From positions 26,352,001 through 26,412,000 of the forward strand of contig CM097885.1 of assembly GCA_044892525.1 (NCBI GenBank): a stretch of 60,000 bases of DNA, given 5' to 3'. This DNA comes from Schmidtea polychroa (taxonomy: Eukaryota). Below the pieces are notes generated by a model. The model did not search any database. It was not told where the DNA came from and saw only the letters and a program-made list of their open reading frames with translations. Both the position numbers and the translations under genes were made by a program. Shown here piece by piece: positions 2,248-35,381 of the stretch. Every line of letters begins with the position of its first letter. Position 1 is the stretch's first letter.

Positions 2248-2346
2248 ATTTTGAATTAAAATAAAATTTATTTAATATAATTATTGTTTTAGTTCTTACT
2301 TGTATCATTTGCATTTTATGTTGTTATTGTAAAGTATCCTTTAGAC

Positions 2347-2519
2347 CAGTGTTTCTCAAACTATGGGTCGCGATGACTTATGGAAAGATCTACAAATATA
2401 AATTTTGGAAGTTTAAGCCTTTTAAATTTATTTAATCTTTGTCATGTGGGTCGCAATAAAATTTTTGGCATGAAATGTCAAAAATTTGGGTCGTGATCAA
2501 AAAAGTTTGAGAACCACTG
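2347..2519. mobile_element. hAT-type MITE, 173 bp
   Basis: TIR cagtgtttctcaaact / agtttgagaaccactg (15/16); 8-bp TSD ctttagac at 2339-2346 and 2520-2527; empty site present in the second tandem unit (about 5076-5083). Confidence 0.95.
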
Positions 2520-5500
2520 CTTTAGACTATTTTATTGTGAAATAGTCAAAGTTTTTATTGTTGTGAACAATTTAGTTATTAAAAGGTTTTATCATTATTA
2601 TTATTATACAATTATTCAACAGATATCTTAGGTTTTTATCTAGTCAAATGGAAGATCTTGATATATACAACATCCGAAATCATTCTCACTACTAGAACAC
2701 AAAATAAAACACCTTCGACAATGGTAAAGAGCTTCTCTCAAATTTGGTCATAATTTTTTTATAATGATATTTAATGATGAAATTATTAGTATTTTTTAAT
2801 GATATTTAAATTTTTATAATGATCTTAAGAGTAAAAATATTTTGAAATAAATATAAGGGGAAATCCCTCGCAAAAATTTGGTTTTTTGGTTTATCATCAT
2901 GGATTTCAAGGGCCCAAATTTCTTTTTACAACATATACAACATACGAAATCATTCTCAGTACTAGAACACAAAATGAAACACCCTCGACAATGGTAAAGA
3001 GCTTCAAATCTCAGACAATCATAATTATCCATAGAAATAACAACAACTTTGAAATAGGTCTACGAAAGTGCGATATCTCAATTTATGTTTTCCCTGATGA
3101 AAATTTATTATGACATAATTCGAATAAAGCAAAAGAATTTCAAATTGATATCAATAATCACAGTTCACAATCATCAAAATACTCCGGTGAGAATGATCCT
3201 TCGTACTTTAAAATTGGGATAACAATAAGCAACCCATATCTTCATGGACAACAGAAGATATCTTAGAGTTTTATCTAGTCAAAGGGAAGATCTTGATATA
3301 TACAAAATCCGAAATCATTCTCACTACTAGAACACAAAATAAATCACCCTCGACAATGGTAAAGAGCTTCAAACCTCAGACAATCATAAATATCCATAGA
3401 AATAACAAGTTTATAATAGGTCTACAAAAGGGCGATATCTGGATTTATGATATTCCAGAAGGCATTTTTGTGAAGGTTTTCATCGGGAATTTCAAATTGA
3501 TATCAATAATCAGATATAAGGAATGGATGTTCTTAAGGCCTAAATGTATAGCCTTTTGAGTGATAAATAGAGCAACAAGGCTAGGGGAATAACATTGAAC
3601 GTTACCGACTTAAAACATCAATCGTAATTTGATTGTTATCATAATAATTCGATGATTTCAATACCACAATCTCGAATAGTAAGTAATAATCATCAGTTAT
3701 TTACAAAAAAATATATAAAATTAGCCCTAACTATTCTTGATGATAATAGGCATTGGGTAAATAAAAATGAAAGTTTAGCATATGGTCATTATGAAATAGT
3801 TAACATTTTTGTGAAGGTTTTCATGGGGAATTTCAAATTGATATATATCATTTTATTGTTTTATTATTATTATTATTCCAGCTGAATTATCTCTACGCCG
3901 GCTTTCTCTATAAGCTTCGGCATTTCCGTTTTTGGTTTATCATCATGGATTTCAAGGCCCCAAATTTCTTTGTACAACATATACAACATACGAAATAATT
4001 CTCACTACTAGAACATAAAATAAAGCACCCTCGACCATGGTAAAGAGCTTCATTGTCGATAAATATCCATAGAAATAACAACAAGTTTGAAATAGGTCTA
4101 CAAAAGGGCGATATCTGGATTTATGACTTACCAGAAAGCATTTTCGTGAAGGTTTTCCTCGGGAATTTCAAATTGATATCAATAATCACAGTTCACAATC
4201 AACAGGTTACACTTTCATCTAAATCCTACGGTGAGAATGATTCTTCGTACTTAAATAATGGGATAACAATAAGGAACCCATATCTTCAGGGACAACAGAA
4301 GATATCTTAGAGTTTTATCTAGTCAAATGGAAGATCTTGATATATACAACATACGAAATCATTCTCACTACTAGAGCACCCTCGACAATGGTAAAGAGCT
4401 TCAAACATCATACAATCATAAATATCCATAGAAATAACAGCAAGTTTGAAATAGGTCTACAAAAGGGCGATATCTGGATTTATGATTTCCCAGAAGGCAT
4501 TTTTGTGAAGGTTTTCATCGGGAATTTCAAATTGATATCAATAATCAGATATAAGGAATAGGTGTTCTTAAGGCCTAAATGCTATAGCATTTTGAGTGAC
4601 AAAGAGAGCAACAAGGCTAAGGGAATAACATTGAAGGTTACCGACTTAAAACATCAATCGTAACTTGATTGTTATCATAATAATTCGATGATTTCAATAC
4701 CACAATCTCGAATAGTAAGTAAAAATCATCAGTTATTTACAAAAAAATATATAAAATTAGCCCTAACTAATAATGATGATAATAGGCATTGGGTAAATAA
4801 AAATGAAAGTTTAGCATATGGTCATTATGAAATAGTTAACACGGATATGGGTAATAGTAACAATGCTGAAGTTAATGATCCGGACGAAGATAATAATCAA
4901 TATGTTAATCCACATTTCCCAAATGATGATTATGGCCACTCACACTTTCCATATGAAAGGGAACATCAATATGTACTTGAATGAATTTTGAATTAAAATA
5001 AAATTTATTTAATATAATTATTGTTTGAGTTCTTACTTGTATCATTTGCATTTTATGTTGTTATTGTAAAGTATCCTTTAGACTATTTTATTGTGAAATA
5101 GTCAAAGTTTTTATTGTTGTGAACAATTTAGTTATTAAAAGGTTTTATCATTATTATTATACAATTATTCAACAGATATCTTAGAGTTTTATCTAGTCAA
5201 AGGGAAGATCATGATATATACAACATCCGAAATCAAAAAACACAAAATGAAACACCTTCGACAATGGTAAAGAGCTTCAAACCTCAGACAATCATAAATA
5301 TCCATAGAAATAACAACAAGTTTGAAATAGGTCTACGAAAGTGCGAAGAAGTCATTAAAAAGGAAGTCATCTCCTCCGGTGAGATAGATCCTTCGTACTT
5401 TAAAGTTGCGAAATCAATAAGGAACATAAATCTTCATGGACAACAGAAGATATCTTAGAGTTTTATCTAGTCAAAGGAGAGATCTTGATATATAAAAAAT

Positions 5501-5766
5501 ACGAAATCATTCTCACTACTAGAACATAAAATAAAGCACCCTCGACAATGGTAAAGAGCTTCAAACATCAGACAATCATAAATATCCATAGAAATAACAA
5601 CAAGTTTGTGAAAGTTTTCATCGGGAATTTCAAATTGATATCAATAATAACAGTTCACAATCATTATGTTACACTTTCATCTATATCCTCCGGTGAGAAT
5701 GATCCTTCGTACTTTAAAATTGGGATAACAATAAGGAACCCATATCTTCAGGGACAACAGAGGATA

Positions 5767-6019
5767 CAGGGTGGGCCAAAAGTAACGCTCTATTTTATTT
5801 ATAATAAATTTTTTAATCTTAATCCCATTTTTTAAAATTAATCCCATATTCTAATAGCACGTGTTTCATATTTTTTCCATGCCAATCCTTAGCACTTTAG
5901 AAAGAACCAAACTGATAGAAATGTATTATTCTAACGGAAAGTCGATTATTCTGACTCAAAGATCGTTTGCTAAATATTTTAATGTATCAAAATATCCTTC
6001 AAGATTTGTATCATTTTAA
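5767..6019 (+). mobile_element. 5' fragment of a Tc1/mariner-superfamily transposon (DUF4817-type HTH N-terminus)
   Basis: TA followed by cagggtgggccaaaagtaac TIR-like end; ATG 5879 gives MPILSTLERTKLIEMYYSNGKSIILTQRSFAKYFNVSKYPSRF; truncated. Confidence 0.75.
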
Positions 6020-6309
6020 TTTGTATCAAAGAACACAAAATAAAGCACCCTCGACAATGGTAAAGAGCTTCAAACCTCAGACAATCATAAATATCCATAG
6101 AAATAACAACAAGTTTTAAATAGGTCTACGAAAGGGCGATATCTGGATTTATGATTTCCCTGATGAAAATTTATTATCACATAATTCGAATAAAGCATAA
6201 GAATTTTAAAAAAGTAAAGATCAAAATATAGAAAAAAATAAATAGTAATGACTGAATAAACTTTTTTCATTTGTGGAAGAAAAAAGATTTAGAATAGGAA
6301 GCAGAAAAA

Positions 6310-8989: not shown

Positions 8990-10956
8990 TCATTATTTCA
9001 ATTAATTAAGGTTCAAATAAGTTAAGGTCCAAAATTTAAAAAAAAAGTAAATTATGGGTTAATTAAGAAAATTAAGGTTCAAAATTAAAAATTAAAGTAA
9101 ATGATGGGTCTAAAAATAAAATTTAAGTAATCAATGGTTCAAATAAGTGAATTAAGGTCAAAAATTTTAAATTAAAGTTAAATAAGTAAATTAAAGTAAT
9201 AATTTTTAAATAAGTTAAGTAATGTAATAAGTAAATTAAAGTAAGATTTTTAAAATTATTAACAAAATGTTAGAATAATAGTCGGTGATTGAGAATTGAA
9301 AATTTTAAATGAAAATTTTTATGAAATATTTATCAATGTTAATTTTAGATGGAAATTTTTATGTATTATTTTTCAATGGTAATTTTAGATGCAAATCATT
9401 GTCAATTAATCACTATATACAATTATTTGTTGAATATGTAAATAAGGGTTATATTTAGTTGTTAAGTAAATTATTGGTGTAAAATGTTAAATTAAGTTAT
9501 ACAAGGATAAATAGGTAAATTAAGAATAATTAAGTAAATTAGGTTCAAAATTTTAAATTAAAGTTAAATAAGTAAATTAAAGTAATTTAATAAGTAATTA
9601 AAGTAAGATTTTTAAATTTATTTACAAAAGTTAGAATAATAGTCAGAGTTTGAGAAATAAAAATTTTGAGTGAAAGTTTTTAATGAAATAATTTTTAAAG
9701 TCAAATTTTAATGGATTAAATTTTAATGAAAAATTTAATCGAATATTTTTTTAAGATAATTTTTAATAAAATTTTTAATGGAATATTTTTAAGTTAAATT
9801 TTTAATAGAAATTTTTATGGAATATTTTCCAAAGACAAATTTAGATGCAAATTTCAATAATAATAAAAATAATAGTAATAATAATTTTATTAATATTAAT
9901 ATAATATTAAAATTAATAAAAAATAATTATATTAATAATAATAATAATAATATAAAAATAATAATAAAAATAATTATAATAATTATAATATTAGGGATAG
10001 GCCTGCAGCCTGAAAGTTAAAATAATAAAAACAATAGAAAATTACGATATTTGGAAATAGGATAAACAAAAATAATAAATAATTACTTAAAATAAAATAT
10101 GGGTTTAATTTAAATACTATAAATAAATATAATCTATAATTAGTAACAACTAGTGTTACTAATACTATATATAGTAATTATAAAATTACTAATAATATAA
10201 TAAATAATTATAATATAATATAAATACGGGTTCGAAACGAGAACCAGGGACGAAAAATTTGACTAGAAATTTAGGACGCAAATATTGCAAACGAAAACAA
10301 ATTCACCACGAAAACTAAAAATAGTAAAACGAGGAGAAACGTGACAACATATTAGTTCAACGAAACTAATTAATTTATATCAAAAGATTGAATCTAGATT
10401 TCAATCAGTGTGGAAAGAAAATTGAATCGAACAGATTATATAAAAGGAAATTATTCATTGTAGCGGCAGGAGATTTTCAAGAAACAATAGCAGTGAGAGG
10501 AATCACGTTTTGAGAATTTACAATCAATTTACTTCAGAGGTAAAGAATTTTGAAGGATAAATTATTATCCTTGAGTAGTTAAATCAAGCGAATACAAAGT
10601 AGTGTTAACTTACTTTAGTATTTCTTAGGTGCGCCAAAATAAATTACCACTTACTTACCCAACTCTTTCGTCGACTTTGCGATCGTTGTGCTACACAGAA
10701 GCCATCGATCTCTTCCAGGCTGAGATAAACAGCAGGGATTAACAAATCCATTGTCTTGTATTTTTATCTCGACACATAGTTGTAAATTATTATTTGTAAA
10801 TAAAAGTTTTGTAAAGAGAAAGGAGTTTGTTTTTAATTTGTCATTCTATTTAATTTAAATACGCGCAACCACATTAAATATATTATATTTATACCTATTT
10901 TTAATTATTGGAGTCATAGTGTTGAGATCGGTAACCCCCACTTTTCGATCTTAACA
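8990..10956 (+). mobile_element. 5' LTR of Gypsy element X (3' end firm, 5' boundary uncertain)
   Basis: Ends ...cgatcttaaca directly before the PBS; A-rich degenerate repeats upstream; no matching TG start or second LTR found. Confidence 0.55.
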
Positions 10957-10959
10957 TTT

Positions 10960-10977
10960 TGGTGAGCCCGACGTGAT
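10960..10977 (+). promoter_or_regulatory. Primer-binding site, tRNA-Trp type
   Basis: tggtgagcccgacgtgat, one mismatch to the canonical Trp PBS tggtgaccccgacgtgat, 3 nt after the LTR CA. Confidence 0.85.
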
Positions 10978-11094: not shown

Positions 11095-13142
11095 ATGGCA
11101 GATATAAATAATTTACAAAATCTAAATGAGAATAATTTACAAAATAATAATATGCCTGTAGCTCAACCACCAGCGGTAGATTTTATGAGATATCCAACAA
11201 TTCCGATTAAACCATTTGGTGGAAACCCAGGGGAGTTTCCAGAATTTATGTCCGAATATTTCCAGTTAGCCAGAGCATTAGGATTCCCGGAACCGATAAT
11301 GATTTTGAGATTACCTTTATATTTAAAAGGGATGATGCGGGAAATATATAACGATGTTATAATAGCCGAGCATCCAGTTGAATGGAATGTATTGCGATTA
11401 GCGTTACAAAACAGAATACTACCGGGGATGCAACTAGAGTGCTGAGACAACAGTTTTATAATAGGCGTCAAAATTCGGATGAGCATGTTGGGGAATTTTC
11501 ATATCAAATAATGATGTTGGCAGGGAGAGCATTTGGTAATAGGGCAGCCTGGAATGATGCAACTAGAGCATTAGTGAAAGATCAGTTTTGGTCAGGGTTA
11601 TCGTCAGCAATGAGAAATGCACTCCGTTTGCACATAGGGGATAATTTAGAGGAATTAACTCGTAAAGCGTGTTTAATTGAAAGTAGCATTGAAAAGTCAA
11701 ATAATTTTACAATTAGTAGCAATTAGTCAGACATTGAGTGTTTTAATTGTCATAAAAAGGGACATATGTCAAAAGATTGTAAAAGTAGGAATAATTCTCC
11801 AGGGGACAAATTATGTACCAAGTGTGGGAGAAATAATTATGTGGCATCAAACTGTAGAATTTCGGACCTAAATTGTGAGAAATGCAAGCGCAAGTGACAT
11901 GTAGCGTCAGTTTGTAAGGTTAGTTTTGGGGGGAATAATTCAAATAATAACAATAATATAAATAGAAGCCCCGATAGGAATTTTCAAGGCAATAATAATA
12001 ATAACTTTCAGAGTAGAAATAATAATTTTAATAATAATATTAAAAGGGATGAAGTATATTCGGGGAGGGGGGTAAAATTAAATGTCATAAGTGTGGAAAA
12101 TTTGGTCATATTATGCGTTCATGTCCACAAAATCAGTTAACAAAGAACAATGGTAGTAGTAACAATGGTAATAATCGATCAAAGCAGACAACGTTTGACG
12201 TGAATTCAGATCATAAATTAACTTATTTGCAGCAGCTTTAATTAGAAATTCAAGAAGAGAGAAACAGGTTAGCAAGGCTAACAACAAATGAAACTGATGT
12301 GTACGACGAAAATGAAGCTGTTTATTTGACGTCAGCTAAAAAGAGGCGAAATAAAAATAATTATGTAGAACTTGAAGTGTTGATGCTTCAAGAAAGTCCA
12401 CAGGAGGACATAAAGGAAAAGACTGTGGTTATAGAACCAGAGGTCTGTGAGGGTTTACAGGTTTCACCCAGGAAAAATCTAGTGGCTATGGCAATGGAGT
12501 CAGAAGCCAACACAGAAATAGAAGGTTTCCCGGTTTCACCAGTTAAAAATCGTAAGGCTATGGACATGGATCCAATAGCTAATATAATAGTTCCAACAGA
12601 AATTTTTCAAAAAAGATGGGCTTCGGTCAGTGAGCCGGAAGTTCTTATAGCCACATCATCCATGCGAGGTGAGTATTTTAGTGAACCCATAAAGGTTAGA
12701 GAAGCATCGAAAGAGGAAGGAAATCCCATCGATGACTGTAGAAAGGTTTTATTACGCAAGAGCGTATGGCAAAGAGAAGTGAGACAAAAATTAGAAAATA
12801 TTCGTTTAAACCCGGTTAAATGAGAATGAGGTTGACAAATTAATAGATATCATATCAGAGTTAGACAGAAATGAGGAATATCACCCAGAATTGAGAGAAA
12901 TTCTAAGAAATATTGGCTTAAATTGGAAACAAAGGGAGAATCTGGAGGATTCTAAAATTTTTGTATCTCTCCCAAAGGGTTGTTTTCGTAGATATACAAT
13001 TAACCCAAGTGAAAAAGTAGAAGCATTGGCAAAGAGAGTTTCTGAGTTAAAACCTCGATTCAGATGCAAATTATACTTATTGGGAGAAAGATTAATAGAG
13101 GGAGAAACCCTGTTAGATTGTGGTATACTACGGTTGGGCTAG
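11095..13142 (+). pseudogene. gag: Gypsy gag (frameshifted) with four CCHC-type knuckles, an acidic spacer and a ubiquitin-like domain
   Basis: PFGGNPGEFPEFMSEY..LPLYLKG..; RRQNSDEHVGEF; CFNCHKKGHMSKDC, CTKCGRNNYVASNC, CEKCKRK*HVASVC, CHKCGKFGHIMRSC; KIFVSLPKG..INPSEKVEALAKRV..LYLLGERLIEGETLLDCGI. Confidence 0.85.
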
Positions 13143-13897
13143 AACCGAGAATCGAGAGCTTGTTTTAATGAATCAAAAATATGTAACATAAAAATCGCAC
13201 CAAGTTAAATTAAAACATCAATCAATACAAATTAAAGTACATAACACATTGATGATAAATAAGATCCAGGTGGTAGAATGGAGGAACGAAAATAAAGGTC
13301 GCAATCACTAACACAATTAGGAGAAACATCACATTCGGAATAGCTAACAACTAAGAAATAGAATAATAATAAATAAATTAATGAGTAATAGATTAATTAA
13401 TAATATGAAAAATTTCTAAATAAATAAATTTAAAATTTAAAATAAATTATCTAGTAAACTGGTAAAATGATAAAAAATAGAATAAAAGTAGTAAAATTAG
13501 ATAAATTATAAAATTTATAAAACCAAATTGTTTAAATCAATGAAACTAAAGTAAAATTAACTGAACTTATTTAAATTATAAAACTTGTAAAACTAAATAA
13601 ATTAGCAAAAACTATTTAAATTATAGAATTTATAAAGATAAATCTTAAAAATTAAGAAAAATTAGAATTTTGATTAATTAAATTAAAAAATAAACAATTA
13701 CACACATTCATGCATGCATGCAAAAAATTAATCAGAATTGCCTCGCATTCTTATTGGATATAGTAGCAGAGAATGCGTAGGCGTATAATTCAATCAGTAT
13801 AAATACTGAGTGAAATTTCATTTTTCGCACAACCCCTAATGTATTTAAAAATTTAAAATGACACACCCCTAAGTAACCAACACTACCAGGGAAATAT

Positions 13898-15368
13898 ATG
13901 ATTATAAAAGCAAAGTTTCACAAGGAAACTGTTACAGCAGTGGACTTGGATAATGTCCTTACAATAAGTGAGATAGAAATTGATCAATTAAATCAAATAT
14001 CAGCCATACCACATATATTGGGAATCGAGCTGATGAAAAACGCAAGAGATGGGAAAGCCATTAAGATGATAATGGATTGGATACTGGAGTTGCGAATCCC
14101 AGTAGATACTCTTAGAGAGATAATGCCATTGGTTCTGCCTTTATTAAAAGAGACATCACAATTTCAGACACAAGCAAAGATGCTGTTGATTAAAAATGGA
14201 CATGCTATCAGCATCTGGAAGGTAGACAAGGTCCAGTGACGTTAGATATCAGGATACCCAGGAGAGGACACCTGATACAGCAATTCTCATGTTATCATAG
14301 AATAAAGAAACTGAGAAAAAGAATATCAGAAATAGTAAAAGAATCATTCATAATAATGATACATGGTTGTCAGGTGGATGACGACGAATTTCTAGTAGAT
14401 GTTGGATGTTTTCCAGATGAGGAAACAACTGTATTGATATTACTGGTAGAGTTTCCAGAGGATCAATGGGCAACCCTGAGATTGCCAGACAATGGTGATA
14501 TGGAGGATGAAACTGGATATCCCGAGCAAAAACAAGTAGATGCGGATACTCATCAAGAACCCGTAACTACAGTAGATCTAGATGAGGAGATAGATAAATA
14601 TCTAAAGGAACTCGATAGCACTGAAGATGAATTGGTCGAAATATTTCCAACAGAGGAAGATAAAAAAGTACAATTAAATCGAGACGAAACGAACATCGGA
14701 GCGAGTACTTCGCAACAGATCAAGCCATCAAGAGAAAGGGTGAGCCCGAAATTAGTCGAGAATAAAAGGAAGGAGAGAAGGGGTAGACCGAGAAAAAGTC
14801 AAATGAACCCGCCTCCAAGAGAACTTCTAAAACCAGTTACAATACAAAATGTAACAAAGCAGGCTCTAGCAGAGATAGCTAGCCAAATCGATGAAAGCGT
14901 TGAAGATGTTAGTGATAAAACGGAAACATGGAAAAGATTGAATCAAATATTACGACTGATTAAGCCCGATTGGCAAATTAAGAAAAAAATAAAAATATTA
15001 ATGTGGAGAAAATTACAGAAAAAGTCAAGAAAGCGATGGAAAAGATTCCAGGAAGCACCACAGAACAAGAGATGTTCGAAGTAGCAGGACAATTCATAGA
15101 TGAAGGCCTGACGAAAGGGAAAATGATAACGATTTTAGCCTTAATGTTTAAAAATGCCTTGATCATAATTAAATATGATTCATCGAGAGTCCCAGCAGCC
15201 ATAGACAGGTTAACTGATATCATCGAAGTGAACTTCGGAACATGGATGGCTGAGCACAAGTTTTGGGATATAAAAGAACCGAAAGGAAAATATGAGTTAA
15301 ATGAAGAATTGTTGACAGAAAATATTTCAAGTAGTCCACGGGGAACAGTGGATTTACTAGTTGGATGA
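13898..15368 (+). CDS. Accessory ORFs of element X; 14236-15084 has a ubiquitin-like N-terminus, an acidic region and an AT-hook, and probably frameshifts into 15003-15368
   Basis: LDIRIPRRG..RIKKLRKRISE..IMIHGCQVDDDEFLVDVG (Ubl pattern); RRGRPRK; TATAAATA at about 13798 upstream. Confidence 0.55.
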
Positions 15369-16930
15369 TGATGTTGTTGGTAATGATGGGAATATTGCGA
15401 CAGACAAATTCCCCAACGGCACATGATTGTAGCGAACCAATACTATCGCGAATCTACTCACTAGTAGACACAGTGGAATGCAAGGAAGCATATCCAGATA
15501 AAGTTGCAAAAAGGGAAGACGTGGAATATCATGTTTATCAGCAAACAGAGTTTTACAGAACCAGAGTGAGGGAATGTCGAATACAGAGAGCGACGTTTGA
15601 ATATTACTGTGGATCGAATAGTTATTCAGCATTTTTAGGAGCTAAACTCATTCCCACACCTTTAATAATCCCACCAGAGGATTGTGTAAATGCTTTTCGG
15701 ACAAAAACAGTTAAAATAGATCATAAGGTAACACTTACCGCTGAAGAAGGGAAAAAGTTGGGTATAACTATTACCCGGGGAGGACCGATAGCAGATGATG
15801 GTTCTTGTCAGGGCAGAAAGAAAGTAAGAGGTTCTAATGTAGTAAGCTATGTGGTAACAGTTGAGGACTACACAGTAGAGCTGATCGAGTACGAAGGAAC
15901 CTTTGAAGTATCCACGGGAAAAATGATGTCTCACCCAGAATGCAACTTGAAATTTGGTTATTATAAAACTAGTCTGGCAGCACTAACGTACCAATCAATG
16001 AGATACTTTTGTGATTTAGGATATCTGAAAAAGGTAGTATTTTCAAGGCTAGATGGGAAAAGTTTTACGTCTCAGGATGCACAACAAAGTGGTTGAGGAG
16101 ACAAGATAGCTCACAAAACGAAAAAGGAAGAAGTAGCGGAGAAAAGCACAACAGTAGTATTAGTCTCAAAGGACCCAACAGATGCAATTCCTTTATTCAA
16201 AAAGAAACAGACAACAAAATGTGGTGTACCAATATTTGAAACCAACTACAAGGGAATATACTTAGCATACAAATATGTTCCAGCGGCAGAATCATTACAT
16301 CTATCAGATAATAAAATAGCCAAGTATATCAATAATAAGATTGATTTCTTGTATCATGATTTACAGAAACAATTATTAGATGTGTATCAGGAAGTGATCC
16401 TGAACGACTGTCATTTAAATCGGGAAATAATACGGAATAGATTAGCAATATCTATAGCTAATCCCGATTTAATAATGCCAATGTTGACAGAGGAAGGAAC
16501 ATTTGGTAGAATTTTGGGTGAAGCAATTTATAGCTATCAATGTAAAGCAATAGATGTAGAAATTACCAAATATGATCGATGTACTTTGGAGCTTCCTTTG
16601 AAATATAAAGGGAAATTGAGATTCCTGATGCCAGTATCACATCAGTTATTAAAGGAGGATACCTCACCAGTAACGACAATTTGCAATCCAGCAATGTCAC
16701 CATTATACAAAATTAACAATATTTGGATTTCATTGCCAGACAGAAAGCCGCCTTCAAAACCAGTTGAAGTGCTTCAAGCTACAAAGTTAGAAACTAAAAT
16801 GGAGTTTCGACCATTAAACGAAATGTCAAAAGGCGGAGTATATACTCCGGAAGATATTGAAGAAGCTCGGTGACCCATTGTATTTCCCTAAATCAGAGAT
16901 CGGGGAGTGACAGAAATAATAACAAGAATT
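15365..16930 (+). pseudogene. env: Envelope glycoprotein, chuvirus/herpes-gB-like class III fusogen; in-frame stop at 16094-16096, 3' truncated
   Basis: Signal peptide, AHDC..YSLVDTVEC, VRECRI..YYCGSNSY, C..A, G.C.G, CGVPIFETNY, YINNKIDFLY..DC.LNRE..RLAI..P..GEAIY.YQC..V..C..ELP..RFL.P, GGVYTPEDI. Confidence 0.85.
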
Positions 16931-17336
16931 TATCAATCATTTGATGGAAAACCGAAATTTCAAAATTTTGAAAATAGTACTTTACAACAGTACCCTGTTA
17001 AAGCAAAAAGGAGGAAACGGCAGGAGTGGCCTGTGAATTTTTATCACCAAAAAAAAGTTAATACCAGAACGAGTTGAAGAGGAAATGCTAAAGAGGTTCG
17101 ATTTTAGAACAAATACAGATATATTACTATCTTCCTCATACCCAACGTATCAGATGAAGTTCGAGACAATGCCATCCTTGGGTACATCAGTATTGGAGAT
17201 GGTACCGAAATTTACATTTAGCACGTTGGAACGGCTAAAGGAAGAGTATCGAGACGAAATAAAATCGTAAAATGATAAAGATAGTGAAAATCAACAAAAA
17301 TTCAGAGATAATATTCGAGGAATCTCAACAATATTA

Positions 17337-17669
17337 ATGGTCAATACGGGTAAAAAGACTCATAAGCCCACGATTAAACTAAAAGTTAACAGGCATACGG
17401 TACATGCCATTATTGATTCAGGATCAGATTTGACATTGATCGAAGCAAATTTATTAAATGAAAAAGAATTACAAGCAATAGTGCCAACATTAACTGTGGC
17501 ATCGGGAGCACATGGACAACCTATCAATGTTATCGGAACATTAGATTGTGAATTAAGGTTGTGCGATCAAAAATTTAGACACGATATCAAGGTCACTAGA
17601 CACTGTATGGCAGAATGTATCGTGGGAATGGATATATTGAAAAAGTTAAAAGATATTGTATTCGATTGA
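17337..17669 (+). pseudogene. Retropepsin aspartic protease of element X; RT/IN missing
   Basis: HAIIDSGSDLTLI, ASGAHGQPINVIG, CIVGMDIL. Confidence 0.92.
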
Positions 17670-17739
17670 GCAACAGGTGAATTAGTAAAAATGACGGGTA
17701 GAAAACGGAAAACCTACAGTGTGGGTGTAGTGTTTTTGG

Positions 17740-17912
17740 ATAAGTAGTGGGTATAATGGGAATCCTGGGACACGCCACCCTATGAAACCGACAATTTAAT
17801 GCTTTCAAGAATTTGAAATTTTTAAAAATTCAAACTTTTAAGATTTCAAACTTTCAAACTTCAGAAGTAACGGGTGGCGTGCCACAGGATTCCCATCATA
17901 CCCGCTACTTAT
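17740..17912. repeat. 41-bp inverted repeat with about 90-bp spacer (MITE or Polinton-terminal hairpin)
   Basis: ataagtagtgggtataatgggaatcctgggacacgccaccc (17740-17780) vs reverse complement of 17872-17912, a few mismatches. Confidence 0.8.
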
Positions 17913-18252
17913 AAAAATAAAATATTTTGATTTTTTGATTTAATGATTTTTATAATTTTATGGATTTGATAAATTTTATAAACTTGGTTGGGTGGTACCC
18001 AAGAAAACCTTTGATTTAATGTTTTGGGGAATTTTATAATTTTTATATTTTGGTTTGAGTTCGAACCAAGGTTCTCACTCAAACATGGTTTGACTTTGAA
18101 TCAAGATTCAAAGTCAAACAAGATTCGATGAATTTATAATTTGAGATTTTATATTTTGGTTTGAACCCAAACTTTGGGAATTAGTGAATTCACTGGTACC
18201 CAAAGGTTGTGAAATTTTATATTATAAAAATCTGAAAATTCTATTATAAATA

Positions 18253-19546
18253 ATGAATAATATAAATCCTGAAATTTCAGAAAAAAATAAATTAAATCTT
18301 GATTATAATAAACAGTTTATTCATGAAATTAAGAAAAATTATGTACTTAAAATTTGTCCAACTCCTGGTTCCATTGCAAATTTAGATCGTGGAGGTGATG
18401 TAGTTTTTCTATCTCTTCAAATATCAAATCCTATAGATATTTGTAATGCAAAATCATATGACAAAATTGAATTAGAAATTGAAGCAAATAAAGATATAAC
18501 TCTAGAAAATAATTTCTTTCCAAATATATTCACCAACATGAGATTAAAATTAGGATCATCAGAAATTGAAAATATATCAAATCCAGGTTCATATTCTACA
18601 ATGTTAAATTTTGTTTTGACTGGTTGTGATTACAAAAATGAATATGGTGAATTGACAGGTTGGATCCCTGATGTTATCAAATGTGATTCGGATAAAGATG
18701 GTTTAGATGCAAATTATGGTTATTATATGGTTATTATAAGTTCAACTTTATAAATCTAAAATATTTGAGGGTTATTTTGAATTGAAACATTTATTTGGGT
18801 TCCTTCAAAATTATAATCGTGTACTCCATAATGTTTTTATAGAATTAATTTGTAATAGCGCAATAAATGATCAAATATTATTCTATGGAGCTGCAGATAC
18901 AAAAGTTAAATTAAAATTAAAAACATTTGAATTACATATACCCGAATGGACATAAAATCCACATGCTGAAATTAAATTACTTGAAAGATTAAATTCCAAC
19001 AAGTCCATAAATGTTAATTATTTAAATAGAAAATGTAGTGAATTTGACATGACAGAAGGTTCAACATATTCTATAAAAGTAGCAAATTTAGCATATCGAC
19101 AAACATATATTTTAATTGGATTCAAAGAAACAGGTGTATCCTTTCAAAAAAATAGCAACTTATTTATTCAAAAGATTGGAGCTGAAAATTTAAAATCAAT
19201 TCAAATTCAATTGAATAGTTCTTATTATCCGATAAATAGAATGGAGTTTATTATAGAAAACAATGAAAATATATTCCCATATCTAAATTATATTCAAACA
19301 TGCCAAGATTTCAAAATTAAACCACAATTAAATTTAGAAGATTTCAAAAATTTGTATTCTATATTTTGTATAAATGTTTCAAATCAAGATTAGCTATAAA
19401 TAATGTTGATGTTACTCTTCATACAATAAAGGATTCTAATTTTAAATCAAAAATATATACATTAATTCTTAAAGAAAATAAAATAAAAATGAAGTTGTAT
19501 GGTGGAAAGATTTCAATAATTGGAAATGTTAGAGGGGATTCCTAAG
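18253..19546 (+). pseudogene. Polinton/adintovirus double-jelly-roll major capsid protein (stops and frameshifts)
   Basis: ITLENNFFPNIF..LKLGSSEIENI.NPG..STML; FELKHLFGF..YNRVL; YILIGFK; LKSIQIQLNSSYYP; L.LEDFKNLYSIFCINVSNQ. Confidence 0.8.
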
Positions 19547-19651
19547 TTTAAGGAATAAACAACTTTTATTACCAAAACAAGTTTTGTTAATAAAACAAAG
19601 TTTAATTTTCCAAACAAGTTTGGAAAAATAAACAAAATTAAGTTTTTTAAA

Positions 19652-20145
19652 ATGTCTAGATATTTTTGGACATGTGAAATTTGTCATTGTAGTATTACAA
19701 GACATCATAAATCAAGACATCTCAAAACCAAAAAACATTCATCATTGTTAAATTTAAGATCTGAAAATAACAATTTGAATAATGATAATAATGACAATAA
19801 TCAATGGTTGGATTTCAATCTTTCAAGTAGATTTGCTTTTGAATCATCTTTTGATTCAAAAGTTCCTTGTAATTTAAAACAGGGCTTCATTGGTGATTTA
19901 CAATCTTCAAAAATAACATCAACATTATTTAAACCCTTTACTACTGAAAAATATCCAGGTGAAAGACATTTAATTAAACACAAATATACTGGACCTGGAA
20001 CACGATTAGATATTAGACTTGATTAAAATAATAATCCCAAACAAGGAGAGGAACCAATAAATAAAATTGACCAAGCTGCTTTGAAACACGACATTGCTTA
20101 CAATTCAAAATATCTTAGAGATAGAAATGTTGCTGATGTTTATAG
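19652..20145 (+). pseudogene. C2H2-like zinc finger fused to a parvovirus-VP1-type phospholipase A2 domain
   Basis: CEICHC..RHHKSRHLKTKKH; HKYTGPGTRLDIRLD*..EEPINKIDQAALKHDIAY..RNVAD (Ca-binding GPG loop, catalytic HD). Confidence 0.85.
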
Positions 20146-20577
20146 GACGAAAGGATCCCAAGAGTCAAAATTTAATTGAAGAATACACAAAAGATTTGAA
20201 TCAATTAATTAAAGGATTTTCTTCAGATGATAAAAATGAAATTAAAAAATATTTACATTTAATAAAATTAGTAGGTAGTTCAAAATCAAAATATATAGAG
20301 TTTAAAGAGTTATTTAAATCAAAATGAAAAGGGTTATAGTGTTAAAGAAGAAAAAGGAATAAAAGGAAAAGATTATATTAAAACAAATTCTATTAATCTT
20401 TTTATTGAACTAAGAAAATTATTGGCAGCAGAGAAAACAGGACATAATAATTTAAATGTTGATATTTTAAAGATGGCCAAAAAAACTATTAAAACATGGA
20501 ATAATTTCACAAGATAAATTTAATAAATATTCTCGTTAATAAATAAATTTAATAAACCTCAAGTTTTTTAAAATAAA

Positions 20578-20829
20578 ATGACTGAGTATTCAATATTAGA
20601 TTTTTTAACAACATTTGGAATTGATACAAAAACAAATTTCGATTTAAAAGATTATGCGAATTATTTAAATTTACCAATTAAAATTTTGATGAATGATGAA
20701 TTAAAAAAAATTGGTAAAACTAAGAAAAATAATATAATAATCAATTATCAAAACTCAGATAAAAAAGGATCTCATTGGGTTGCGATTTATAATAAAATTA
20801 TATATTTTGATTCTTATGGAATTAATTAA
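20578..20829 (+). pseudogene. Adenain-like cysteine protease, truncated
   Basis: IIINYQNSDKKGSHWVAIY..YFDSYG. Confidence 0.85.
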
Positions 20830-20925
20830 ACCAACAAAACAAGTGGAGGAATTCCTCGACCAAAATTAAGGTTTAAAACAATATATATGTTTCATATCAA
20901 TAATATTTTTACTTTATTAAAACAC

Positions 20926-20958
<33 letters not shown>

Positions 20959-21049
20959 TAATAATAATAATAATAAAAATAATAATAATAATATTTTGAC
21001 TTTATTAAAACAAATTAAGACAAAATTTCCCCTCTAAATTACCTTTAAA

Positions 21050-21280
21050 ATGAACCCTTGATCAATAAAATTCAAGCAAAGGTACTCTCAAAATATTAAT
21101 TTAAAGAAAATACACACACCCAATCTTTAAATAAACTATATAGCCGCCATCTTGAAAAAATGACCTTGACCTTAAAAATACGACCTTGGCCTTAAAATTA
21201 TGACCTTGATGAGTCATCTAATGACATTGATGAGCCATCCCATGACCTTGATGAGTCATGATCTTTGTTTCAATGGCCTT
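21050..21280. repeat. Clustered tgaccttga motifs, possible Polinton terminal/subterminal region (similar aaggtca cluster at 45190-45350)
   Basis: Multiple tgacctt(g/a) copies and gccgccatcttg; the terminal role is inference. Confidence 0.4.
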
Positions 21281-21281
21281 G

Positions 21282-21978
21282 ATGAAAGATTTTCTTCGAT
21301 TAAACAAAAAATCTTTTACAATAAAATTAACTAAACAACTTCCATCAGCATATCATTTATTCATCAAAAGTAATTATCCAGAAATAATTGAATCATATGA
21401 AATTTCATATCGAGGAACTTCATTTTGTTGGACATAAAAATGCTGTTGAAAGAGATATACATGAAATATTAAAAACTAATTTTTCAATGAATGTTTCAGG
21501 ACAACAATTTAAAGAATATAAAAATTCTAAAATTTGTTGGATGTGTAAACAATCTTTGAGTTCGAACCAGGGTTCGAGCTCATACAAAGTTATAGATCAT
21601 GATCATTTTAAAGAAGCAAATAATTATCGAGGTGCCGCTCATCAAAGTTGTAATTTAAATTGTAACAAACCAACAAAGATACCAGTTATATTTCATAATC
21701 TCTTTGGATATGATATTCATTTATTCATAAAACATTTGGCAATAAATGCAAAAAATACTTTTAAAGTTATTGGTTTGACAAAAGAAAAATATAAATGTGT
21801 GGAATATGGCTGCTTAAAATTTATAGATTCTATGAATTTCTTTGGTGGGAGTTTAGACTCGATTTCAAAAACAATGTCAACTGAAGGGTTTGAAAATACA
21901 ACAGAATATGTTTTACAGAAATATAATATTCCAATTGAAGAATATCCAACATGTTTAGCAAAAGGAATATATCCATAT
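21282..21978 (+). repeat. Inverted duplication of a pPolB segment (source about 26842-27558)
   Basis: ORF 21388-21987 is nearly identical to part of ORF 26383-28146 on the opposite strand, with a short deletion. Confidence 0.95.
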
Positions 21979-23079
21979 TTAACTTGATTTAATGATTTTT
22001 ATAATTTTATGGACTTGATAATTTTTATAAAATTGGTTGGTTGGTACCCAAGAAAACCTTTGACTTAAATCGGATTTTGTATTAAAAAAAATTTTTTTTG
22101 TATTGAAAATCCCTGGATCAATCGAGACAGCCTCACTATAGTCTGAAAATTCTATGCTTTTTTAGTGTAGACCGCCTTTTGTATTTAAAAAAATATTTTG
22201 TATTGAAAATCCCTGGATCAATCGAGACACCCTCACTATAGTCTGAAAAACAAATTTGTACTAAAAATCCCTGAAAGCAAAAAAAGTGAGTTGCAACAAT
22301 TGCGTAATCAAAAGTTGCAATATAATGATCAAATTTAACAAGTTACAAAGTCAATTAACTGAACAAGTTGTAAAGTTAAATGCTGCCATATTAAATTTAT
22401 GAATACTAAATTTAATACAATATACAACACAATAAATGAGATAATTACATCATTTAATAAGCGAGTTTCAAATTTAGAGTCTCGATAACACATATTAACC
22501 CTACACACATCATTAGAAAAAGAGCAGCTGAATTACAAGAGAATCATGCATAATAACCTAATACATATAAATATATAACAGACTTCAATAACAACAATTA
22601 GTAAAGAATGGTCTTGTTTTATGATTGTAAAAATTATTGATCCATATTTCTTTTTACTTACTGATGATGATGAAACAATGAAATGGTTGAAATGTGATTA
22701 TAATAGTTAGCTTCAAAAGGATGATGTCAAAATGACTAGTTATGATTTTTCACATGTGTATTGGCATGATAATACTGAATCGCATAAAACATACAAAGTT
22801 AAAAGTAAGAATATTAATTTTCCTAGTTCACTCGTAAATTAATTATATAGATTTAATATTTTATGATAAATAGATTGATGCTAACGAGGTTCGTAAAGCG
22901 TTGTCCGAGTTGTATAAAGATGTGCTCACATCAAGACCATGTGAAATACGAATGTTGATACCACAGATTCATCATAATTTAATAACGATTGAACAGTCGT
23001 GGAAGATAATAGTAAATATTATAAAACACTTTTAAAAAGTTATTATTAATAAAAGTTTTTTATTATTAAAATATATAAA

Positions 23080-23430
23080 ATGGAGAAGGTAAAAGAAGAT
23101 TAAAGTTATCCAGAATTGAGATCATCAGGATATCATATATAATCACCTTTTGAACCACAAGTCCTTGTAATTCAAAAGCACCTCTCCTACAGAGAGAACC
23201 ATCAGCACCTAGTGAATTAGAAGTTATGAGAGTAAAAGAATTCAAATCTGAAAAACTTCATTTACAAGATTTATTAAAACATTATAAAAAAATTAAACAT
23301 AGATGGAATAGAGCCGATTGTTTGAAAATTGCAGGTTGTTCTTTAGGTTTTGCAACAACAATATTAACAGTTATATTACCTGCAACTAACCAGTACTAAC
23401 ACTTGTACCAATAATTCTTGGGAAAATCAA
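23080..23430 (+). pseudogene. Degenerate Polinton membrane-type protein (adintovirus gasderminX-like)
   Basis: PSAP..MRVKEFKSEK.HLQDLLKHYKKIKHRWNRADCLKIAGCSLGFATTILTVILP. Confidence 0.4.
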
Positions 23431-24967
23431 GAAAATTTTTTTTTATAATCATCATATAAAAATGGATCAAATAAGTGTGGTAGATACGAGTAAATTAAAT
23501 ATATTTTTATTAAAACAAAAAGCTGTGGAATTCACAAAAATAAAAAGTGAAAATCATAACCTTAGACAACCTCACATTTGTAAAATGACTGGTACTTCAC
23601 CATAAACAATGACAAGAATTCGGAATGATTTAGAAATGCCTTCACCTTATAGACATAGAATTAGAGCAAAAAGAAACTTTTTGCGTCGAGGACTTTTGAC
23701 CAATGCAAAAATACCTTTTTATATTGGGAATAATAATACATCAAATAATCCTAATACATCAAATAATCAAGTTTTTGATCAAAAACAAATTAATCCCATT
23801 CCCAATACTATTCCTGGTAAATCATTTTTATGTAATCATTGTACCAAAACTTTTAAATCAATAATTGTATACTTGAAAATAATGAAAAAGATGTAATGGG
23901 TTCTGGTAACCAAGATGAGAATCCTAATATTTCTGGAAGTATTTATTCTCCACCTAAAAAAGTTTTTGATCAAAAACAAGTTTTTGAATTAAAAGAAGAT
24001 GAAGAAGTTGAAGAAATAGAATAAGATGAAGAAGATGAAGAAGTTTTGGATTCAAAACAAGTTTTGAATTCAAAACAAAATATTGCCAAAAAACAATTGG
24101 ATGAAATTCTAGGAAGATATGGATAAATTTTTATATAAAATTCCATAAAATTCTATATAAAATGGATTTAACTTCTGCAGTTCAAATAATTAATCAAGAA
24201 CCAGAAATAGAAAAATTATTTCTTGAACGTTTGGATGAATAAAATAATCAAGCTTTAGGAACACAAGTTGCAATTGGTCGAGTTTCTTTTGTTTTAAATG
24301 TTGGACGGGATATATTAATGAAAATAACAATGAATAAATTGGTTGATGTTCATCATTGAAAGAGATGGTTTATTAATGGAGAATGTTTATTTATTAAAAT
24401 GTGCTAATATGGTTGATAAAAGTGTTGTGGAATCTATACGTGGAAAAGTTACTATAGAGTGTAGTAGTGATGCGGGACGTAATAAAATAGTACAAGGTAT
24501 ATTCCATGAATTAATCCAACGGCCAATATAAAAAATATTACAAGAAAATATACAATATTTCTAGTATTAACTGATTTTATATATTTTATTTCATTAATAT
24601 TTTCCTCATTTTTCTTTATTAGTTCACCAATAAGTTTATGAAAAATTTCAAGTTTACGAATAGCTTGAATGGTATCTGAAAATCGTAAATTGATGGTTGA
24701 CATTTTAAATATTAAAAATATAAAATTTGATGTAATCATCTTTTTGCTTATAAAAGCATTCTTGTAATTATTAATTCAGATTTAATCGTCTTTGAAATTA
24801 TTGCTTGATATTTAATCATTCTTTTGATTTTTAAATTATATATTGTCACATTTCGTCATGACGAAATTTGACGAAGAATAATTTAATCTGATTTAAAATA
24901 TAAAATAATGATTGGAAATAATTTAAAGTAATTAAATATGATGGAATCCAATTTAATTTGATTGAAT

Positions 24968-27900
24968 CTAATCAGAATCATCTTTTTCACAATCTTTATA
25001 AGAATCTTTGTAATCATCAGAATCGTAAAAATTAGAATTATAAGAATAATCATCATCATTATTTTCAACATCACTTTTATTATTATTTTCAAAAGAATTT
25101 GATGATAATATTTCATCATTATATAAATTTATGTAATAATCCAAGTTTTCAAATACATCAGATATTTTTTCATATTCTTGTCCCGGTTTCATTTTAGCAA
25201 CATCAACATCTGTATATTTTGTTTTCAATATTTTATTTATTTGTTTCAACTTGTTTATGATGGGAATCCTATCATTTCCAAATGGAAGTGTATGAATTCC
25301 ATCAGATAAAATAAATCTTTTATCATCATAATTATTTAATGAAGTTTTGTTTGATTCTTGCAATTCTAAATCATGATCAACAGATTTAATTTGATGAACT
25401 GTTACTATTTTTTTCTCTGAATTTGGTTCCAAAATATCAGCATAATCTTGATGTTAAATTTTTTTAGTTAGAGATTTTTGGATTCCTTTATTTTTATTTT
25501 CTTCAATTGTATCTGGAAAACTTGGATTTTCCATTTCAAGAGAATATTGTTTTGATCGAAAAAATATAAATTTAATTATTGGGTTTCTCATCTTTGAAAC
25601 TAAACAATTCCCCAGATGTATTTATTAAATTTCTCAATATTTCTTTATTAGATATTTCCTCATATATATCAGGAGAATAAACTCGCAAAAACATACTATC
25701 AGTATCCATTGCATGCAGTGATATTCTATCACCAAAATGTGGTACTAGGATATCATAATATGTTTCATACATTTGAAGTTTTGATAATTCTAAAATACTA
25801 TATCCAATAAACATTGGTTTATTATATGTTTTTTCATAATTTTCAGTTTCAACTGCAACTAAATTTTTTGAAAATACTTGTGCATTTTTAAATGTTGGTT
25901 TTGATATTATTCTGTTATATCTTGCAAAATCTTTTTTATTGTTTGTTAATAATTCAATCTTTGTATACTTGTCAATATTTTCCATGATTTTTCCAAATAC
26001 AGAATTATTTAATAATTTATAAATGGTATCTCCAAATGCATCTTTTGCTCTTTTACATTAATTTCTCTTTTTAATGTTGTCTTGAATATATTTTTTCATG
26101 AATGGTGCTTGTCTAAATTTTATAATATTATGAACTTGCTCAATTATAATTCCATGTCTAACATAAAATTGTAACATTCTATAACTTCTAGAAAATATCC
26201 AATATTTAATATTTTGTTTATTAATTGTACAAGTACTTGTACAATTAAAAACACAAAAAGAATATGAAATGGCAATGGAATACCTAGTCCATGCGAAATT
26301 TTATACATCGATGCAACTGCTTTATATGCAGGAATAATGACACAATATATCTGTATCTTTGAATAAAGTTCTATAAACATGTTTATAATTGAATACTTCT
26401 TTCACCCATGGAAGAACTAATCCCACTTCGAATATTATTTTTTATTATATTAAACATGTTGATGTCTGATAATAATTCTATACTTTGGTTCGAAATCAAA
26501 CCTTGGTTTGAGTTTGAATCTTGACTCGAACTCAAACCTTGATTCGAAATCATATAATATAATAACATATCCCATGCTAATGATGGTAGAGTTATATAAT
26601 TATAAGCTTTCAATGGAAAAGTTTTTACAAATTTTTCAAAACAATCAGCGAGAATATAAACACTTAAACTTAGATACATGTCTGTATATTCTCCTATATT
26701 TTTACAACTAAATAATTTCCACATTTTTCTAGCTCGAGCATATTCTTTTTCTGATATATTTGATTGATCTAATATTGAATAAAATTTTTCACGTAGTGGT
26801 AATTCTATTTCTTGATATCTATCGAATGAATCAATGTAATCATATGGATATATTCCTTTTGCTAAACATGTTGGATATTCTTCAATTGGACTATTATATT
26901 TCTGTAAAACATATTCTGTTGTATTTTCAAACCCTTCAGTTGACATTGTTTTTGAAATCGAGTCTAAACTCCCACCAAAGAAATTCATAGAATCTATAAA
27001 TTTTAAGCAGCCATATTCCACACATTTATATTTTTCTTTTGTCAAACCAATAACTTTAAAAGTATTTTTTGCATTTATTGCCAAATGTTTTATGAATAAA
27101 TGAATATCATATCCAAAGAGATTATGAAATATAACTGGTATCTTTGTTGGTTTGTTACAATTTAAATTACAACTTTGATGAGCGGCACCTCGATAATTAT
27201 TTGCTTCTTTAAAATGATCATGATCTATAACTTTGTATGAGCTCGGACCCTGGTTCGAACTCAAAGATTGTTTACACATCCAACAAATTTTAGAATTTTT
27301 ATATTCTTTAAATTGTTGTCCTGAAACATTCATTGAAAAATTAGTTTTTAATATTTCATGTATATCTCTTTCAACAGCATTTTTATGTCCAACAAAATGA
27401 TTTAAAGTATCTTCTGGAGAAGTTCCTCGATATGAAATTTCATATGATTCAATTATTTCTGGATAATTACTTTTGATGAATAAATGATATGCTGATGGAA
27501 GTTGTTTAGTTAATTTTATTGTAAAAGATTTTTTGTTTAATCTAAGAAAATCTTTCATTATTTCTATTTGGTTTGATTGAAATTCTTGATTCGAACTCAA
27601 ACCTTGATTGAATCTATAAACATACCAAGAATCTAATAATTTATTTTTTTCTGTAATATTCAAATATTCTCGTTCTAAATTTTGTGTTTTATTAATTGCT
27701 TCAAAATCCCCATAAATTGTAACAAGAGATTCTAATAAATTTGAATAATTTTTAAATTTCATTTCAAGATTCTCTGGCATTTTAATTAATGCTGGTTCAT
27801 TATCTTTACACAATCTATCGCGTTTAATTGTAACAGCTTTAGAAGTTGAATAATAAAGACATCTTTCACAAGTATGTCCTCGTACTCTATGGGAAGATGA

Positions 27901-28146
27901 TGATCGAGATCTCATAAAACTTTGAAAGTTTTTTATCCAAACATAATGAGAAAGTAAATCATTTACCTCTTTCTTTTCTAATATAAATAAACTTATTGTT
28001 TTAGAGTTGAAACTTGTTTCAACTCTAAAACTTGTTATGGTTGAAGAATTCTCATCTAATATATAAATTGGTATAACCTTTTCACCATCTAATTCATAAA
28101 TATTAATTCTAAGTTGATTCAATCTTTCAAATTTTGACGTGTTCAA
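24968..28146 (-). pseudogene. Protein-primed DNA polymerase B of Polinton 2 (N-truncated, deletions, internal inversion)
   Basis: IYGDFEA, DHDH..YRGAAHQSCNL, PVIFHNLFGYDIH, FIDSMNF, KGIYPYDY, KLLNNSVFGK.MEN, MDTDS, FKDE, YDDKR..DGIHTLPFG. Confidence 0.95.
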
Positions 28147-29988
28147 TTTTCTAAGACATCGACCCTTCTATAATGTCCATATGCAAAACTTGAGTTTTTC
28201 CTTACCCAAGCTCTCTTATCGTCGTGATTATTTAAAGCTATTTTTCAGTTTTTAAAAGTAAACAGCTGATGATTCCGGGTTCTTATTCTAGTTTGAGGAA
28301 CGAACATGACTTGTTGTTGTTATAGCAGTCTAAATAAGATTGATGTTTGATGTCGGTCCTGGTAATTTTACGCCCTTAGTCCTAATTGTTGACTTATTTC
28401 CTAATAGGCTGTAACATTTAGGACGTAAGAAAACCCATTCACTATATCCTAACCTTTTACTCTCATTCTAAAACTTGCCTATAACTGAGTCAAATCCCTG
28501 GAATATAAAGGATGAGAGGGATCGTAATTTGAGGTATCTAAAAGGTCATCTGAAATCATCGCTTGTAATAATATATCTAATTTTAAATTTTTGACCTCTA
28601 AGAAGAAAGAGTCGGTATCACCCGCTACTAAATTAATTTCACAATTATAAATATCTCGATATCGTTGTAGCTCTATATACTGTAACTGATACATCCGTAG
28701 TTTGGATAGATCCAGTATTGATTGTCCGATGTAGCTGGGTCTATCCAAACATATAGAGTCCTTATTGAGATGCGCGGCAAACAGATCATCAGCTATTTCA
28801 ATTGTTTTTCTGAATGCCGGTTTTGACGAATATGTAATTAATTTTTCAGATGAATTACATAGTCGCAAATTCATCCTCTTTTTAAGGTTCTCTACGGATT
28901 TACCGTACAGGCTATTATTATATAATTGAAATAAATCTATATATTTCACTAACTGCATAAGCACGCAAGTTAGTGTTTTTATCGATATGATTTTTAAAGA
29001 TATGATTTTGTTTATATTTTATAGCTCTGTGTATATTTACAACCTTAGCCCCAAGTGAAAGATAAAGCCTCAGAAGTTCTTCTTTGGATAATGAGTGAGC
29101 ATCAGCTTCTCAATTTTTGAGTTAGGTGGGCACATCTTTTCCGGTCAAATCGGAAAGTCATTTAAAAAATCATGGAAATCAATCGGAATATCGATATCAA
29201 CTTCCATAGTATATCCATGTGGAAGTGTTTCGATATCCGCAACATTCACACACTCATCCAAAACTTCATTCAAGCCATCATACACCCAAGTAAAATCACC
29301 ATAGTGAAGACTTTGGCTAAGAGCCCAACCATACAGATTATTTATATCAATATACAATAATTCTGTATCATCTGAAGCAGCCGTGTAATGTCTGTTAACA
29401 AATGTTAACCCACCCCGTATTCCTCCCTCGTAAAAATTGAACATTTCCATGTCCTGTAAAAGTTCTATGGGTTCCGTTAATGTCATAAGCGCTGAGGCCC
29501 ATGACATACCGGGAATTCCATAGAAATTTAAAGGTTCCAATCCATTGTATGCAATGGCATTGGCACAGAATTGTTGAAAGTAATCAGCGAGTAGGAATAC
29601 ATCGAGTTTGAGGTAGGTTAACATATAGTCACGCAAATTTATACAGTTTTGCTGCGTCCAGATTAGTTGTGCCTTAGCGTACTTATCTTCGCTAACTCAT
29701 ACGGAAAAATACCTTTACAGTCAACTATAGTACCTTGAAAGACAGACGAAGTTAAAGGAAGAGAAGTTAGTGTTTTCACATCCTTAGCTAAATAGCAATT
29801 AACAAATTGCATAGAATCTATAAATCTCATAGCCAATTTATTGATATGTACAATTAACGAAATAAATTTTTCGGTTGAGGTAGGAACATGTAAAGCCATT
29901 GAGACCGTGTTTTAAAATATGGTGGAAGTCATAACCTCGTAAATTATGAAAGACAATAGGTAGTAGACGATAAATTTGACGAGCAACA
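28143..29988 (-). pseudogene. pPolB of Polinton 1, 3' part
   Basis: LPIVFHNLRGYDFH, FIDSMQF, KGIFPYE, GIRGGL, LLYIDINNLYGWALSQ, NNSLYGKSVEN, AGDTDSF, WVFLRPKCYSL, DDKRAWV..AYGHY. Confidence 0.93.
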
Positions 29989-35322: not shown

Positions 35323-35381
35323 AACATTACATTTTCGGCAAGATGCCCCTAGATATTTACCAGAGAAATGACAGTGGTCTC
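35323..35381 (-). pseudogene. 59-bp pPolB piece stranded between elements A and B
   Basis: Reads (R)DHCHFSGKYLGASCRKCNV, linking CYLCKKPIVNSVRD (42441 onward) to ARQIYRLLP (29988 downward). Confidence 0.92.

Follow-up and report, generated by a model that had tools for sequence, protein, structure and literature searches.

A decayed gypsy-type element of Schmidtea polychroa with a gB-type env gene between gag and protease

Errantiviruses from Nematoda, Bryozoa and Platyhelminthes have been reported to carry only ENV proteins of the gB type and to share the order GAG-ENV-POL, all of them belonging to Ty3/gypsy according to the accessible text (Chary & Hayashi 2026, eLife, PMC13524379). The supplement of that study comprises nine flatworm elements, six of which are from Schmidtea mediterranea, and the identities published for Smed_1 amount to 32–36% with families 3–6 and to 64% with family 2. 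The entry mechanism of gB-type errantiviruses is stated there to be unknown, and in the main text as available the words 'Bcl', 'ubiquitin' and 'accessory' do not occur. For the planarian Burro elements, the order Gag (with several CCHC), Ubi/SUMO-like, BCL2-like, Env and PR is given in the text at hand, together with a relationship of env to mononegavirus glycoproteins (Arkhipova & Yushenova 2019, PMC6431247). Furthermore, a chuvirus-like glycoprotein is carried by mosquito BEL/Pao elements (Dezordi et al., as cited in PMC13524379).

Here, a stretch of 60 kb from Schmidtea polychroa (CM097885.1, positions 26,352,001 to 26,412,000; in the following, the window) was analysed, for which an original prediction had proposed a glycoprotein gene upstream of the protease of a Gypsy-like element and had regarded this order as unusual. 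It is not unreported, however, having been published for planarian Burro as well as for errantiviruses of flatworms, nematodes and bryozoans (PMC6431247, PMC13524379, as far as accessible). Judged from sequence comparison, the element is very probably a decayed, 3'-truncated Ty3/gypsy LTR copy of the GAG-ENV-POL type ('errantivirus', Burro-like), representing a sister family of Smed_errantivirus_4. Gene order, family and fold of env, the breaks as well as the missing anchor and the missing RT and IN are shown for the locus itself; as the copy has no RT of its own, its clade was deduced from env, gag, protease and relatives.

Identity and state of the env gene

On the forward strand, an env-like frame opens at 15335, with a run of methionines at 15365, and extends to about 16960 when stops are read as X. 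Both open halves exceed the 27-bit cut-off of the Pfam family PF24664 (Monjiviricetes_fusion), the first with 64 bits (E 8e-18) and the second with 131 bits (E 3.5e-38), the latter half also showing a weak match to Borna disease virus G (Pfam, E 0.0043). In an alignment of 104 sequences, 12 of the 13 near-invariant cysteines are retained in the window env, and the best 33 matches of the corresponding profile to PDB are all herpesvirus gB (top E 0.0017). An AlphaFold model derived from the same alignment (pLDDT 88) gave herpes gB throughout as top Foldseek matches in PDB (VZV gB at E 4.3e-15, TM about 0.4) and chu-like virus glycoproteins in BFVD (E 2.3e-37, TM up to 0.75). Based on the Pfam, PDB profile and AlphaFold/Foldseek matches, the segment 15365–~16960 is thus assigned as ectodomain of a class III fusogen of the chuvirus/gB (Monjiviricetes) type, in agreement with the fusion glycoprotein and the class-typical cysteine series originally predicted at 15365.

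The gene is not intact. The frame can be followed to about 16960, but it contains in-frame stops at 16094, in the middle of the ectodomain, and at 16871 and 16889. Moreover, the search for a membrane anchor recommended by the original prediction turned out negative, as all three frames from 16868 to 17400 lack one downstream of the ectodomain (best 19-residue hydropathy 0.88), whereas all 13 long relatives examined have one after the last ectodomain helix (1.79–2.54). A profile built from the anchor region of the relatives likewise did not match the window; since the pre-anchor helix, which does align there, escaped it too, this null result is not counted as evidence. Directly downstream, a degenerate stretch at 16949..17270 (+), with stops in the protease frame, connects env to the protease, and its first part weakly resembles the post-anchor tail of the relative P0001 (tblastn of residues 503–529 to 16949–17029, 41% identity, E 0.12). 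Because of this resemblance, the anchor has likely been lost by an internal deletion. The clean absence of the anchor after the last ectodomain helix could also be expected from a domesticated or deliberately secreted protein; this explanation is scarcely credible, considering three in-frame stops, one of them within the ectodomain, and that the frames of gag, linker and protease are broken as well. Hence, with the anchor absent and env stopped three times, the copy is a defective member of its kind rather than an intact errantivirus and can neither produce an anchored Env nor transpose by itself.

At the env start, a hydrophobic segment of moderate hydropathy (1.29) is present, as expected from the signal peptide proposed before. 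Its N-terminal nature was not corroborated: the segment is only moderately hydrophobic and lies inside a longer chain in relatives, so that it is probably an internal signal rather than an N-terminal signal peptide.

Env-before-protease order

Gag (11095), env (15365) and protease (17271) all lie on the + strand, gag beginning about 6.3 kb before the protease, which bears out the predicted position of the glycoprotein between gag/accessory frames and retropepsin on one strand. Recognisable pol sequence ends with the protease at 17271..17669, which is of retroviral aspartyl type with a DSG motif (Pfam RVP E 4.9e-9, gag-asp_proteas E 1.2e-7). RT, RNase H and integrase belonging to this copy were not found in the window with the pol sequences of relatives as queries. 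The element is cut off at a small inverted-repeat (MITE-like) piece with self-complementary ends (17733..17917), adjoining which is an 85-nt piece recurring at 21984–22068. After the element end, Polinton-like remains with weak DJR and PolB2 matches in Pfam follow from about 18250.

For assessing whether the order is native, env was searched against 1.84 billion representatives, resulting in 1017 matches at E up to 0.001, of which 150 were listed and 22 long relatives among the latter were picked for a domain scan. In half of these (11 of 22), a single chain comprises env and, after it, an aspartic protease; five of the 11 run on into RT-RNaseH without BEL-type Pfam domains, while env after RT or integrase was encountered in none of the 22. 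A gag or CCHC knuckle precedes env in four of the scanned relatives. P0005 matches the window in having, in order, knuckles, a ubiquitin-like module, env and protease, and P0019 carries gag, ubiquitin-like, Bcl-2-like and env parts; a Bcl-2-like stretch just before env is shared by the window, P0001, P0003, P0004, P0019 and, weakly, P0011. Two or more tandem protease-like domains after env were seen in P0004, P0005, P0006, P0007, P0013 and P0014. All these relatives are predicted proteins, with P0001 and P0152 visibly fused to host-type domains; since separate frames can be merged during gene prediction, true in-frame fusion may be less common than these single chains imply, but the order on the DNA is still as the predicted proteins report it. 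Given that 11 of 22 long relatives share env-before-protease and none has env after RT, sequence comparison identifies this order as native to the lineage and not as the outcome of a BEL/Pao or chuvirus insertion. Accordingly, the postulate of an enveloped Gypsy lineage resembling endogenous retroviruses, in which env precedes pol, is supported.

Insertion of a separate BEL/Pao or chuvirus-derived (EVE) env between the gag and protease of an env-less Gypsy had been considered from the outset, and mosquito BEL/Pao elements do carry such a gene (PMC13524379, available text), the nearest viral folds being chu-like virus glycoproteins. These viral glycoproteins, however, are just 16–20% identical to the window env in structural alignments, while the best sequence matches among those listed are Gypsy-type polyproteins with 30–38% identity (E to 1e-100). 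P0084, in which DUF5641, presumably a BEL-type marker, precedes env, was the single scanned relative with a BEL-type arrangement and shows only 24% identity (E 2.7e-22). In a tree of 55 ectodomain rows, calculated by a quick method and leaving out fragments and most of the 150 listed matches, the window env falls into a group of 15 rows (SH-aLRT 99) with 10 of 10 env-protease polyproteins, and P0084 is placed outside. In addition, no BEL-type Pfam domain is present in the 11 element ORFs scanned, and a chuvirus EVE is at odds with closest relatives being retroelement polyproteins and with flanks consisting of gag and protease. A separate insertion is therefore very improbable and largely refuted. 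The original prediction withstands this objection, with env grouping among Gypsy env-protease polyproteins, as well as the possibility that relatives lack env, since they carry it at this place.

Searches for related loci gave 18 pattern matches in viral contigs and 309 in metagenome contigs, of which none was confirmed, and a full-length copy was not obtained from either set. Among sequencing runs, 10 of the 18 listed rows share part of the stretch, with a best share of 0.33 and no RNA among those listed, a result that speaks neither for nor against any reading.

The window harbours further mobile elements. A second Gypsy lies on the minus strand at 35381–42441, with PR-RT-RNaseH-partial IN at 36467–38746 and a gag-like ORF (39138–41279) in which a ubiquitin domain is clearly recognised (Pfam E 5.5e-9). 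Its RT was considered as the RT missing from the env-bearing copy and rejected, having its own gag and about 31–33% identity to the pol of the relatives. This second element is situated between two arms of 1160 nt forming 100% inverted repeats, which could be due to a recent rearrangement or an assembly artefact. Decayed Polinton/Maverick-like pieces extend over 18250–29700 and 42363–53513, with double-jelly-roll-like (E 0.017), endonuclease VII-like and PolB2-like (E 6.6e-4) frames and a 100% inverted duplication (21282–21978 and 26842–27558). An open frame of 336 aa at 55805–56815 encodes a Tc1/mariner-type transposase (DDE_3 E 7.5e-30) and is flanked by inverted 21-nt tandem arrays, and nested direct repeats, including a spaced 100% duplication of 2718 nt, occupy positions 1–6200.

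The region upstream of env

The right part of a putative 5' LTR with TATA-like and AATAAA motifs can be placed at 10230..10956 (+), ending in AACA and with its left edge unfixed; a second LTR copy is not present in the 60-kb window, and the segment is thus unproven as a repeat. It directly precedes a tRNA-Trp-like primer binding site (10960..10977, +) that deviates by 1 mismatch in 12 nt from the complement of the Trp_CCA 3' end, as taken from supplement 1 of PMC13524379, and is the sole match with at most one mismatch on both strands of the whole 60 kb. Gag follows at 11095..12140 (+), broken by frame changes and stops, with a capsid-like region showing 75–82% identity to P0152/P0153 and four knuckles of CX2CX4HX4C type at 11739, 11814, 11874 and 12083, two of them degenerate (Pfam zf-CCHC E 1.7e-5; gag profile built from relatives only, iE 1.9e-18). 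The remainder of ORF1 (12242..13142, +) comprises a linker, a helical segment and a first ubiquitin-like module with weak Pfam support (ubiquitin, E 0.032). ORF1 is colinear with P0153 as far as 13019, that is, into this module, at 31–45% identity from 12242 onward.

ORF1 is separated by an AT-rich non-coding spacer of 728 nt and 22% GC (13143..13870) from ORF2, whose first ATG at 13898 opens a helical segment and a second ubiquitin-like module (13898..14440, +). Neither a primer site nor LTR likeness was detected in the spacer, and its pair of CCAAT-like (13753) and TATA-like (13798) motifs is not significant, the same being obtained in 157 of 2000 shuffles. The second module is recognised by a relatives-only profile (iE 6e-10 for 14230–14439 and 0.0035 for 14042–14203) and the region by tblastn with P0005 (E 0.002); the module has no Pfam match of its own. 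A likeness of the helical segment (13877–14236) to the TFIIS N-terminal domain was dropped, being without Pfam support, and an ESM Atlas search with this segment gave unnamed clusters alone, with recognition below threshold.

Following a linker, a domain directly 5' of env (14985..15296, +) appears to be Bcl-2-like from individually modest but mutually agreeing matches (Pfam Bcl-2 E 0.03; PDB BOK E 0.039). A profile of six sequences found Bcl-xL at E 7e-4, ranked under two designed helical proteins, while identity to P0001 is 41% and P0003 matches Pfam Bcl-2 with E 9.6e-4 at the matching position before env. A single-sequence AlphaFold model of this ORF (pLDDT 51) was not used, and a word-indexed search with it returned four candidates, none of which was scored.

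The presence of two ubiquitin-like modules leaves room for different readings. Tentatively, the layout may be a native one with two ORFs, ORF1 encoding gag plus the helical/ubiquitin-like part and ORF2 a second, diverged helical/ubiquitin-like part, the Bcl-2-like domain, env and pol; the spacer of 728 nt would then serve as an internal promoter or as an intron. Alternatively, two related GAG-ENV-POL elements may have become joined long ago within the spacer, one contributing LTR, gag and first module and the other second module, Bcl-2-like domain, env and protease, which would leave env before protease still native. For such a join speak the low identity of the two modules (24%, no DNA likeness), which a stop and the spacer (728 nt, 22% GC) keep apart, and the fact that profile searches found just one ubiquitin-like module each in P0005, P0008, P0019 and, weakly, P0011. 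No single close relative spans both halves either, P0153 covering ORF1 and P0001 the Bcl-2-like domain plus env, and these two share nothing significant with each other. Both close relatives, on the other hand, come under one source label, the two sides hardly differ in coding GC and strand bias (0.36 versus 0.37–0.38), the spacer shows no trace of a primer site or LTR, and the accessory domains of Burro have been reported as separate ORFs or polyprotein parts (PMC6431247, accessible text). A join of related elements is considered rather unlikely. Of the junction between two rearranged copies once suggested, only this variant retains some standing, as joining to an unrelated element is improbable. 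The native two-ORF layout was not found in the texts of PMC13524379 and PMC6431247 as available, whose figures or external sequence files may show it or the accessory domains. If the layout is true, a relative of Burro that is compact instead of giant would express Env and Pol, along with an anti-death protein, from an RNA of their own and without Gag.

Proposed function and comparison with known systems

From relatives and established retroviral biology, env of working members would be synthesised as part of a polyprotein. The hydrophobic segment at the env start could then act as internal signal directing the ectodomain into the ER, and a C-terminal anchor after the ectodomain as stop-transfer, with signal peptidase and the element's protease cutting the polyprotein and freeing its parts. 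A gB-like trimer would let particles fuse with or enter other cells, making such members presumably infectious, while the Bcl-2-like and ubiquitin-like domains would probably promote survival of the host cell or modulate protein turnover. The present copy adds one broken family to the published class and matters little on its own; being dead, it does not make the question of gB-type entry more testable. It does indicate that the Ubl-Bcl-2-like-env module of the giant Burro elements is also present in compact relatives.

With herpesvirus gB and the G proteins of chu-like and xinmo-like viruses, the window env has the class III fold in common, but sequence identity is only 10–20% and these are free viruses, not retroelements. 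Mosquito BEL/Pao elements, as described in the accessible text, share the glycoprotein family PF24664 but belong to another retroelement superfamily; the env of P0084, after DUF5641, is just 24% identical and stands elsewhere in the tree, and BEL-type gag, protease and IN domains with env after IN are not found in the window element.

Closer is the resemblance to Burro/GYPSM1, with which the order Gag(CCHC)-Ubi/SUMO-like-BCL2-like-Env-PR is shared, the Ubl and Bcl-2 matches being modest. Unlike Burro, with an ORF1 of 4,873 aa, the window element spans about 6.3 kb between gag start and protease, and it has two ubiquitin-like modules and a non-coding spacer, a comparison made with the published description of Burro. 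Among the scanned ORFs of the element, none matched the MATH, BIR or ankyrin domains of Pfam with E values up to 1. Being not giant and without MATH/BIR/ankyrin cargo, the element is not classed as Burro.

Compared with intact GAG-ENV-POL errantiviruses, in which a signal segment and an anchor flank the ectodomain and ORFs are intact, the window copy is broken, truncated and devoid of pol parts other than the protease, while the conserved-cysteine gB-type ENV is shared. It has a tRNA-Trp-like primer site, whereas PMC13524379, as far as available, gives neither tRNA type nor LTR for the six Smed elements; primer site and gag lie about 2.9 kb upstream of ORF2 here, and a similarly remote primer site may be the reason why no tRNA type is listed. 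Against the published ENV of Smed_errantivirus_4, 157 of 252 residues of domains I–II are identical without gaps when counted by eye, and P0001 agrees with that ENV in 110 of 119 residues of three shared blocks, likewise by eye. By program, P0001 and the window env are 64–65% identical, in accordance with the hand count, and these likenesses fit a planarian host. The gag-env-pol order on one strand as well as family and fold of the gB-type env are common to Smed_errantivirus_4, the described flatworm errantiviruses and the window family, the latter being distinct from Smed_errantivirus_4 at 62% identity, near the 64% between the published families 1 and 2.
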